Positions 53,991 to 56,233 of a stretch of DNA of 64,000 bases are shown here, piece after piece. The translations under genes and the position numbers were made by a program. Position 1 is the first letter of the stretch. Each line of letters opens with the position of its first letter. The stretch is taken from positions 64,001 to 128,000 of the forward strand of contig JBMFMB010000001.1 of NCBI GenBank assembly GCA_049970895.1. The letters are read 5' to 3'. The notes under the pieces are model-generated. The model was not told the DNA's origin and did not search any database. It worked only from the letters and a program-made list of their open reading frames with translations. The stretch is from Candidatus Bathyarchaeia archaeon (lineage in GTDB: Archaea > Thermoproteota > Bathyarchaeia > Bathyarchaeales > Bathycorpusculaceae).

Positions 53991-54398
53991 ATGGGTTTAT
54001 TGGATATATTTAAAAGGAAAAAGAAGGAGGAGGCAAAAACCACTAACGTTGAGGTTAAACAGATGACTGAACTTGAAAAACTCTGTGGAGACGACAAAGA
54101 GACATATGAAGCCTTACTTAATACTATGTTCCTTGACCCGAGAAAAATCGGCGTTTCTATGGAGGAGGCAGCAGAAAATGCCAAGAAATTTGAAAAGGAA
54201 AAAGATTTCACAAGGGCAAAAGTGTGGTACCAAATTGCCGGAGGACTAGCAATTTACGGAGGAAACGTCAAAAAAGTTGTTGAATACTTCAGTAAATGTG
54301 AAAAACTCGCCCCCGGCGCGAGTTATCCAATTTTAAAGAATCCAGAAAAGGCTGTGGCTAAGGCTCAGGAATATTACAAAAAGTTTTTGCAGTCCTAA
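53991..54398 (+). CDS. Hypothetical helical (TPR-like) protein
   Basis: SD GGAGG, ATG start, TPR-like AKKFEKEKDFTRAKVWYQIA. Confidence 0.7.
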   Translation: MGLLDIFKRKKKEEAKTTNVEVKQMTELEKLCGDDKETYEALLNTMFLDPRKIGVSMEEAAENAKKFEKEKDFTRAKVWYQIAGGLAIYGGNVKKVVEYFSKCEKLAPGASYPILKNPEKAVAKAQEYYKKFLQS

Positions 54399-54441: not shown

Positions 54442-54858
54442 TTACTTTTCTTCCGTGTAGCCAAGCAACTCTCTTAAAGATTTCACTTCCTCTCGCAACA
54501 TATTCACTTCGCTTTCAAGTGCACTAACCCTTGACTCTGCTGCCTTCTTCAATTTTTCAATTTCAATCATAAGATTTGCACGTTCAGTCTCCAAAGTTTT
54601 TATTTTCTCCCGCAGGTTCTTCAAGGTCTGCATAAGTTCACCCTTTATGACTTTAATTCTTTCAACCATGTTTTTAATACTTACCGTTTCTTCGACTATC
54701 GCTTCAGATTCTATAGTTGCCCTAAACCTTGCTTTGCAGCTGGGACATTCGAAAATTCCCATAACTTTTGGTGCACCTTCTCCAGGTTTCCGCGGAGAAA
54801 TTGTCCAAGTCTTAACTGGGGAAGCGGTTTCTCCCCCACATTTAGGACACTTAACCAA
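54442..54858 (-). CDS. Cren7-like zinc-ribbon domain fused to a long coiled coil
   Basis: CPKCG...PVKTWTISPR...MGIFECPSCKARFR, followed by about 75 residues of heptad repeats. Confidence 0.7.
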   Translation of the reverse strand: MVKCPKCGGETASPVKTWTISPRKPGEGAPKVMGIFECPSCKARFRATIESEAIVEETVSIKNMVERIKVIKGELMQTLKNLREKIKTLETERANLMIEIEKLKKAAESRVSALESEVNMLREEVKSLRELLGYTEEK

Positions 54859-54957
54859 ACTACAACCCTATTATAGGTATTGCCTTAGAGACTAAAATGT
54901 GTTTTGCAGCAAATTGGCAATTCGCAGAATCCCAAACCATTTAATTGGTGGTTTAAA

Positions 54958-55269
54958 ATGCGGTTTACCGAAATGAAAGCAAAATTGGAGGAGAAAATTA
55001 AGGCACTAGAAGAGGAAAGGCGCACACTTTTAGAGGAGAGTGACAAACTAAAGGAAGTTTTGGAGTTAAGTGAAAAGGCTAAGACCTTAGAGGCGGAAGT
55101 TAACAAGCTTAAAGAAGAAATCAAGAGTCTACGGGATAAAATTCCCGAGGATATCCTAGAAGAGTTAAGTAAGACTGTTCCAAAAATTCTGGAAAGCAAA
55201 CCAGAAAAAGAAGAGGGCGAGGAATGTTGCCAAGAGGAGAGGAACTTTTCTAAACCCTTCAATGCCTAA
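54958..55269 (+). CDS. Coiled-coil protein paralogous to the tail of the divergent gene
   Basis: LEEKIKALEEER...KLK...LEAEVNKLKEEIKSLR; ATG at 54958 after GGTGG. Confidence 0.75.
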   Translation: MRFTEMKAKLEEKIKALEEERRTLLEESDKLKEVLELSEKAKTLEAEVNKLKEEIKSLRDKIPEDILEELSKTVPKILESKPEKEEGEECCQEERNFSKPFNA

Positions 55270-55273
55270 AGTC

Positions 55274-56233
55274 CTATAAGCTCATTTGGAATATTAACCG
55301 CTCTACAAGTTCTTTATAACGGTTCCTAATAGTGACCTCTGTCACTTGTGCTATTTCGGCAATTTCCCTCTGGGTTTTCCTCTCCCCCGTGAGCACTGAA
55401 GCTATGTAGCTAGCGGCAGCTGCAATACCGGTTGGACCTCGTCCAGATGTTAGTTTTAGTTCTTTTGCGGCTGCCAAAATTTTGTGGGCTATTTCCTCCA
55501 CTTTGCCTTGCATTGTCAGCTGATTTGAGAATTTAGTTATATACTGGCTTGGTTTAAGGGGCGGAATAAAATAGTTTAATTCCTTTATTAAGAAGCGGTA
55601 GCTACGTCCCACTTCTTTTTTGTTCACGTTGGATGCTTGAGCTATTTCCTCCAAAGTTCTAGGCAAACCACATTGCCTACAAGCCAGATAAATCGCCGCC
55701 GACGTAACCCCTTGAATAGACCTGCCTCTTATGAGCCTCTCCTTAACGGCTTTTCTATAAATTAGGGACGCCGTTTCCAAAATGTTCTTTGGAAGGTTCA
55801 AATTGTTAGCAATTTTTGTTATCTCAGAAAGCGCAAAAGCGAGATTACGTTCAGTGGCGTCTGAAACTCTTATCCGCCTTTGCCACTTTCTAAGGCGGTA
55901 GACCTGGGCTTTTTGACCTGGAGACAAGCCCTTCCCATAAATGTCTCTGTCATGCCAGTCAATCATCGTTGACAAGCCTTTATCATGAATAGTATACGTT
56001 AGGGGGGCGCCAACCCTTGTCCTTTTTGCCCTTTGTTCGTCATCAAAAGCCCGCCATTCGGGTCCCCTATCTGCTATTTTTGCGGCTATGACGTAGCCGC
56101 AGTCCATGCAAACCAGTTCTGCACATTCATAATCGCGCATCAATCTTGTGCTGCCGCATTCGGGGCACACTTGAACTTTAGCCTGCTGAGTGGTTGATGT
56201 TGGGCTTGCATCCCCAACATCTGCATCATCCAT
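55274..56233 (-). CDS. tfb: Transcription initiation factor B
   Basis: CPECG zinc ribbon, GPEWRAF, B-linker RLRKWQ, two cyclin repeats, [10 protein letters not shown]. Confidence 0.97.

Follow-up and report, generated by a model that had tools for sequence, protein, structure and literature searches.

We analysed a window of 64,000 nucleotides (nt) from Candidatus Bathyarchaeia archaeon (assembly GCA_049970895.1, contig JBMFMB010000001.1, positions 64,001-128,000; genome 1.34 Mb), in which two small divergent genes, here called A and B, lie beside the gene for transcription factor B (tfb). The product of A begins with a small domain related to the DNA-bending protein Cren7 (the head), which is joined by a short linker to a leucine-zipper helix (the stalk). 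The product of B is a headless paralogue of the distal part of that stalk. A sequence-only reading of the locus had proposed that A is a DNA-bridging chromatin protein and that B is its co-regulated heterodimer partner or antagonist; this overall interpretation is partly supported by the results given below. The features of the locus are as follows, with positions counted from the first nucleotide of the window and lengths in amino acids (aa).

54442-54858, minus strand: gene A, an open reading frame (ORF) of 138 aa with a TTG start, encoding head and zipper stalk
54712-54858, minus strand: head of A (residues 1-49), a zinc ribbon (CPKC...CPSC) whose three main beta strands span residues 14-20, 31-37 and 44-49
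54679-54711, minus strand: linker of A (residues 50-60), predicted to be disordered
54463-54678, minus strand: single helix of A (residues 61-132) in the AlphaFold2 (AF2) model
54973-55269, plus strand: gene B, the headless zipper paralogue of 98 aa, with an alternative ATG at 54958
54892-54906, minus strand: conserved 15-mer CAAAACACATTTTAG upstream of A, putatively promoter- or operator-like
54911-54921, minus strand: site of an AT-rich motif linked to B, ATTAATAATTT in relatives and ATTGCCAATTT here (three changes)
55274-56233, minus strand: tfb, which converges with B and shares its strand with A

Pfam identified tfb by its TFIIB repeat (expectation value (E) 4.7e-48) and its TFIIB zinc ribbon (E 9.2e-16), which confirms that the pair lies beside this gene, as the sequence-only reading had stated. 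The mechanical ORF of B spans 54904-55269 on the plus strand, and most orthologues contain both of its candidate ATG codons. The distance of 99 nt first reported between the head-to-head genes fits the ATG at 54958. Counted from the ATG at 54973, which is the start of the 98-aa product in the protein collection (cluster P0121), the spacing is 114 nt.

The head of A and its kinship to Cren7

Profile comparisons with hhalign connect the head to Cren7 through a family of short proteins. The head matched short four-cysteine Cren7-like proteins with a probability of 99.7% (E 1.4e-25), these proteins matched canonical Cren7 with a probability of 98.9% (E 1.1e-17), and the direct comparison of the head with canonical Cren7 gave a probability of 84% (E 7e-6). 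The short proteins were taken from 17 fetched places; most are four-cysteine ribbons and five have three cysteines. One of the four-cysteine proteins, 47 aa long, scored 45.6 bits on its own against the Pfam Cren7 model (cut-off 25), and proteins of 46-50 aa from many sister lineages pass this cut-off with 40-48 bits. When 301 genomes of the phylum were scanned with the Cren7 model, 114 had a match above the cut-off. Within the class of the window's genome, 14 genomes had any match, and their best E values were only 9.5e-4 to 0.086. Over the 1.34-Mb genome itself the model gave no match above the cut-off (best 15.7 bits), and its two best places were the head of A and a second small gene on another contig.

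The predicted fold was compared with solved structures using two methods. The head was modelled with AlphaFold on a 49-row alignment that contained no canonical Cren7, and the model has a predicted local distance difference test score (pLDDT) of 76. When this model was searched with Foldseek against 350,542 solved chains, ranks 1-10 were all Cren7 entries, with template modelling (TM) scores of 0.57-0.62 and, for most of them, a root-mean-square deviation (rmsd) of 1.8 Å over 48-49 columns. The Foldseek E values were weak (0.04-0.23, none reaching 0.001), as would be expected of a query of 50 residues. VIA-align, which does not rely on Foldseek, aligned 45 residues of the head with Cren7 (Z 4.3, rmsd 2.2) and 51 residues with the zinc ribbon of NrdR (Z 4.5, rmsd 3.5). 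Both sets of results fit a zinc-ribbon form of Cren7.

Residues of the head also align with those of the DNA face of Cren7. K16, W18, I20, P22, R23 and R46 of A align with K24, W26, L28, P30, K31 and R51 of Cren7, of which we take those other than Leu28 to have roles on the DNA face as well. In an alignment of 61 rows of A relatives, C4, C7, C38 and C41 are invariant (61/61), position 20 is hydrophobic in 56 rows, R46 is kept in 43, and W18 is kept in 47 and in all 26 of the close heads. Leu28 of Cren7 intercalates from the minor groove, and Cren7 is described as binding DNA as a monomer (PMC5042384). Cren7 (PF11520; PDB 3LWH, 3KXT, 6A2I) thus has in common with the head a beta fold, profile-level homology and the conserved counterparts of Trp26, Leu28 and Arg51. 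Cren7, known as a DNA-kinking protein of Crenarchaeota, is a free monomer of ~60 aa, whereas A has 138 aa with its head fused to a zipper of 80 residues, and the organism of A also has histones, with two histone-fold genes in its genome. These data support the assignment of the head to a Cren7-type domain in zinc-ribbon form, one that would bind zinc and DNA.

The genome of the window encodes free forms of the head as well. Two tandem head-only genes, for four-cysteine ribbons of 56 and 69 aa, lie on another contig (C4, near 48.9-49.4 kb).

L002:1516-1686, minus strand: free head-only gene
L002:1268-1477, minus strand: free head-only gene

The tandem pair recurs in the related genomes G013, G148 and G252. 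The 56-aa protein belongs to a family with 304 homologues, and among the 120 listed, about 60 are labelled Cren7. For some of these homologues a source gives the name 'chorismate-binding protein', apparently a misnomer. A structure-library profile search with the 56-aa family returned Cren7 chains as 5 of 20 matches, with weak E values (0.06-0.78).

Zinc-ribbon relatives of Cren7 and several fusions have already been published. Cren7 and Sul7 were derived from zinc ribbons by Kaur, Iyer, Subramanian and Aravind (2018, PMC5906684), and the portion of that paper examined here describes four-cysteine Cren7 from both Crenarchaeota and Bathyarchaeota, along with a paralogous Cren7ZnR family. Its fusions comprise an N-terminal CdvA-like coil with a C-terminal Cren7, FtsZ-Cren7, and fusions to GIY-YIG and to a restriction-type nuclease (PMC5906684). 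The head of A is likewise a four-cysteine Cren7-type ribbon with cysteines at both knuckles, and the free 69-aa paralogue fits the Cren7ZnR consensus as given there. That consensus has an extended C-terminal region with a conserved acidic motif; in A, the extension is the zipper instead. The Cren7ZnR list of the same paper includes a 135-aa Bathyarchaeota protein, KPV64287.1, with a coiled-coil Pfam label, and judged by its listed length and label this protein is probably of the same kind as A. An N-terminal head with a C-terminal zipper, or a headless paralogue, is not described in the examined text of PMC5906684, and its Figure 2B or the rest of its supplement might show such forms. Full-text literature searches on Cren7 found no other description of the head-plus-zipper form, which, on these sources, appears to be little described.

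The zipper stalk and gene B

In the AF2 model of full-length A (61-row alignment, pLDDT 86.8), the beta strands extend to residue 49 and are followed by a low-confidence linker and by one uninterrupted helix from residue 61 to residue 132. Linker residues 52-57 are at pLDDT <50, and the linker region is variable in length and sequence; the 72 residues of the helix are at pLDDT 91-99. By eye, leucine occupies every d position of the helix (82, 89, 96 and 103, then 114, 121 and 128), each a position is taken by Ile, Val, Ala or Arg, and a four-residue stutter falls between 107 and 111. The long coiled coil that had been read behind the head is predicted to be a single 72-residue helix with a leucine-zipper pattern. 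Leucine at d together with such residues at a favours a parallel coiled-coil dimer, and we predict from this pattern that the zipper of A forms one. A parallel zipper would place both heads at one end, an arrangement that suits paired binding better than the bridging of distant duplexes in the manner of H-NS. Across the order-level family, stalk residues 58-134 are almost invariant, and the head varies and contains a three-residue indel.

Searches for a more specific identity of the stalk gave little. A structure-library search with the full-length A profile returned generic coiled coils only (best E 5e-5), and neither A (18.3 bits) nor B (19.8 bits) reached the cut-off of 27.6 bits for Pfam bZIP_1/bZIP_2. 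A CdvA-like stalk was not supported: a scan of the genome with PF18822 at E<=10 gave four places, of which the two above the cut-off are two CdvA-domain genes, and gene A was not among them.

B is a true headless paralogue of the distal zipper of A, with a similarity that goes beyond coiled-coil composition. The coil of A and B are identical at 27 of 51 positions (BLASTP, E 2e-6). By Smith-Waterman alignment they score 120; heptad-preserving shuffles score 50 +/- 7 (maximum 85), and none of 2000 reached 120. A 35-row profile of B matched the 61-row profile of A with a probability of 98.3% (E 2.7e-14, 56 columns). Within its own genome B is the best match to the stalk of A (E 6.6e-7), followed by the next coiled coil at E 0.07. 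The sequence-only reading had described the two coils as paralogous and about half identical, with B lacking the head; both descriptions proved correct, and the similarity exceeds that of shuffled coiled coils. In the alignment of the two stalks, a two-residue gap falls exactly at the heptad break.

We determined the distribution of B in 80 related loci, which were fetched with a close-family profile of A and encode proteins 64-94% identical to A. Locus records were labelled Bathyarchaeia or Bathyarchaeota in 78 of the 80, and A is present in all of them by selection, since the loci were found through A. In 42 loci, sequence resembling B is found on the opposite strand between tfb and A, as an intact ORF (83-100 aa) in 35 and as a truncated remnant (13-66 aa) in seven. 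The other 38 loci have none, and the protein database contained nine homologues of B. In intact B, a 57-residue coil is followed, after a conserved Lys-Ile-Pro break, by a short helix and then by an acidic tail, which mostly contains two cysteines and ends in acidic residues and two hydrophobic ones. B also keeps Arg or Lys at the heptad a position that matches R93 of A.

Where it is intact, B is under constraint. Conservation over 35 genomes covers its start and the motifs of its coil and tail. The ratio of nonsynonymous to synonymous substitution rates (dN/dS) of B was 0.05-0.22 in 11 of 13 pairs, the other two being saturated; such low values indicate a real, constrained gene. The corresponding ratio for A was 0.03-0.16 in 12 of 13 pairs, and B mostly evolves faster than A. 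A tree was built from tfb, A, DUF116 and sucD (71 rows; the 10 loci in which fewer than three of these genes were present were left out). Both sides of this tree, whose root is not known, include B, and losses also occur within the window's own clade (no B in L056, a remnant in L057); this pattern fits an old gene that was lost many times. Compared with four close orthologues, the window's copy of B contains a -1 frameshift in a GA-rich tract at its 3' end (55240-55269), which replaces the conserved acidic ...EELF end. It may be that this copy is decaying, or that the assembly is wrong at the GA-rich tract.

A Ser/Leu-rich ORF of 125 aa (54885-55262, minus strand) lies antisense to B. Rather than a gene, this ORF most likely represents the mirror frame of the Glu/Lys-rich coil.

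Gene order, upstream motifs and spread of the family

The neighbourhood of A is well conserved in the 80 loci. In 79 of them tfb is located just upstream of A and on its strand, and the kept gene order is L7Ae, gar1, tfb, B where present, A, a conserved 135-aa ORF, DUF116, L40e and sucD. In the window, the 135-aa ORF (53991-54398, plus strand) is convergent with A and has no family match; it is kept at the same place in most of the 80 loci.

The start codon of A is TTG in 75 loci, GTG in four and ATG in one. The sequence CAAAACACATTTTAG (<=2 mismatches) lies 45-58 nt before the start of A in 68/80 loci, including all 35 with intact B and 33 of the 45 without; the exact sequence occurs as a single copy in the 1.34-Mb genome and in the window. 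It may be that the TTG start and CAAAACACATTTTAG together form a promoter plus operator, possibly an autoregulatory one. That A is co-transcribed with tfb was considered and set aside, since the upstream motif of A is kept with or without an intervening B. A second sequence, ATTAATAATTT (<=1 mismatch), is linked to the presence of B, with 31 of the 35 loci with intact B and six of the 45 without containing it.

A has 712 homologues at E<=1e-3, and the best 120 listed are all at least 73% identical to it. Among these 120, every organism-named one is archaeal, mostly from Bathyarchaeia, and 12 have a precomputed Cren7 label. A search of 1.84 billion cluster representatives gave 382 matches at E<=1e-3, with full-length head-plus-stalk forms down to ~30% identity. 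In the 301 genomes of the phylum, full-length matches were found in 18 genomes of the window's own order and in one of another class; beyond those 19 genomes, only the head part matches. A search of a protein atlas with A returned only the Bathyarchaeota clusters of A itself. Viral contigs gave two weak matches to the coil only (37% identity over 49 residues), with no sign of a viral origin.

In several distant relatives of 189-517 aa (P0357, P0371, P0377, P0387 and P0366), head and stalk are followed by a long acidic tail. These tails are Glu/Val/Pro/Thr-rich and of low complexity, and Pfam found nothing in these proteins besides coiled-coil noise. The presence of acidic tails on distant head-plus-coil chains suggests that the acidic tail belongs to the theme of the family.

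Headless stalks are found at other places as well. At the place of A after gar1-tfb, genus g4, which belongs to the same family, has a gene for a headless stalk of 97 aa (L143:2018-2311, minus strand). More headless copies lie elsewhere in many related genomes, with E values of 1e-15 to 1e-19. At two further loci (L140:1983-3200 and L144:1998-3490), a gene with ParB_N and HTH_ParB domains is followed by a headless stalk paralogue of 68-80 aa; these are two genomes of different genera. The ParB gene occurs in 8/81 genomes of the class and was not found in the window's genome, and this sporadic gene may be part of a mobile element.

What A and B may do

The analysis establishes homology, a predicted fold, conservation, synteny and a pattern of loss; zinc binding, DNA binding, the oligomeric state and its orientation, and a pairing of A with B are inferences. 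The reading that we prefer, and to which we give an even chance, is that A is an accessory architectural protein in which a zipper holds Cren7-type DNA-bending heads together, with B as an optional headless modulator. A would then be a pair of Cren7-type heads joined by the zipper, each head being a zinc ribbon with four cysteines in which the fold of Cren7 is retained, as are the residues that align with its DNA face. The hydrophobic residue at position 20 would occupy the place of the intercalating leucine of Cren7, and a flexible linker of ~10 residues would connect each head to the 72-residue helix. The dimer, or a higher oligomer, would bend or clamp DNA at two nearby minor-groove sites, working beside histones and the two free zinc-ribbon Cren7 paralogues of 56 and 69 aa. 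B would be an old, faster-evolving and dispensable copy of the distal zipper with an acidic tail. Its most likely role would be to pair with the zipper of A, and the resulting one-headed, acid-tailed complexes would weaken or tune A.

Such an arrangement has partial counterparts in known systems. In H-NS, a helix that oligomerises is connected by a flexible linker to a small DNA-binding domain, and the truncated H-NST can poison or tune its oligomer. A and B resemble these enterobacterial proteins in the combination of helix, linker and DNA-binding domain with a headless paralogue. This is an analogy only: A has no sequence or fold relation to H-NS, its domain order is reversed, and bridging by H-NS rests on head-head and tail-tail contacts. 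Like bZIP proteins, A has leucine at every seventh residue of a dimerising helix that places two DNA-binding elements. Unlike them, A has no basic region continuous with the zipper, and DNA contact is predicted to be made by a separate minor-groove beta domain. HMGB-type proteins combine a minor-groove DNA bender with an acidic tail. Here B bears the acidic tail, distant relatives have one on the chain of the head itself, and the fold is unrelated.

A number of findings weigh against the zipper-held architectural reading. Those that concern B begin with its absence: the conservation of the head-to-head pair that the sequence-only reading had looked to is seen in the 35 loci with intact B and fails in the 45/80 in which B is missing or broken. 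On the tree, intact and not-intact B are separated by at least 13 changes, seven of them forced by well-supported branches. A and B each have a separate upstream motif and none in common, which argues against a necessary partnership. The leucines on either side of the zipper break have a spacing of 11 residues in A and of 13 residues in B (by eye), so that both halves of a parallel A-B pair would be out of register unless bulged, and in such a pair the acidic tail of B would be far from the head of A.

It is possible, if somewhat unlikely, that B is no working partner of A here, being instead a decaying duplicate or a gene with an independent role, and that the head-to-head order is a relic of local duplication. 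The seven remnants and 38 empty loci would be expected of such a gene, as would the losses inside the window's tight clade, the three changes in the window's B-linked motif and a heptad break that differs from that of A. The frameshift in place of the ...EELF end points the same way, though it could be an assembly error in the GA-rich tract. Purifying selection where B is intact (dN/dS 0.05-0.22) and the start, coil and tail motifs conserved over 35 genomes argue against this reading.

Other findings concern the stalk and its setting. The stalk is more conserved than the head, also outside the a and d positions, which suggests that it has a partner other than itself. The syntenic orthologue in genus g4 is without a head (G077 and G300 are also to be compared). 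At one distant head-plus-coil locus (L145) no tfb lies nearby, and the adjacency of A and tfb may therefore only reflect gene order kept among close relatives.

The main rival to the architectural reading builds on the stalk. It holds that A is mainly an adaptor, whose stalk binds a non-DNA partner such as the segregation or division machinery and whose head anchors this partner to the chromosome; B and the other headless copies would compete for or serve the same partner. We think this unlikely. It would account for an almost invariant stalk (58-134) beside a variable head, for the stalk kept without a head in L143, for headless paralogues directly after a ParB_N plus HTH_ParB gene in L140 and L144, and for the headless copies (E 1e-15 to 1e-19) in many related genomes. 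Division-linked roles have been proposed for Cren7 fusions in the part of Kaur et al. examined (PMC5906684). However, the CdvA model did not match A at E<=10 although it found two real CdvA genes, and the ParB gene is present in just 8 of 81 class genomes and not in that of the window. The strong conservation of the stalk could also stem from higher-order self-assembly.

A bolder version of the preferred reading, which we consider quite unlikely, is a two-part chromatin switch in which a zipper-dimerised Cren7 clamps or bridges DNA and is titrated by a headless, acid-tailed paralogue. Titration would take place through one-headed complexes, or the heads would be masked by an acidic DNA mimic; other lineages would use an acidic tail of the Cren7 chain itself in place of the headless paralogue. 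If true, this would be an archaeal counterpart of control by H-NS and H-NST, or by the tail of HMGB, assembled from unrelated parts.

The remaining findings concern the head. Compared with Cren7, it has four cysteines and a longer inter-strand loop with acidic residues. It also missed the Pfam Cren7 (PF11520) cut-off of 25 bits, both within whole A (15.0) and as the head alone (17.2); the description of the head as Cren7-like in the sequence-only reading is thus upheld by the profile chain and by Foldseek ranks 1-10 and not by the Pfam threshold. With VIA-align, the NrdR ribbon ties with Cren7, and every Z is below 5. That the head is a generic zinc ribbon which binds protein or RNA and owes its likeness to Cren7 only to common zinc-ribbon ancestry, as the sub-threshold Pfam score, the Z of 4.5 for NrdR against 4.3 for Cren7, the Foldseek E values of 0.04-0.23 and the many zinc-ribbon families that score similarly might suggest, is improbable, given an hhalign chain specific to Cren7, the Cren7 chains (weak, E 0.06-0.78) in 5 of 20 structure-library matches of the 56-aa family, the conserved DNA-face positions, and the fact that the NrdR ribbon itself belongs to a DNA-binding repressor.

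If the architectural reading is true, a zipper-oligomerised Cren7 would be a new way to build archaeal chromatin or to anchor the chromosome. The family is widespread in Bathyarchaeia, an abundant uncultured group with histones. Repeated loss of B, together with its constraint where present, provides a natural test of dominant-negative control. At 138 and 98 aa, A and B are small and soluble-looking proteins that are suited to bench work.

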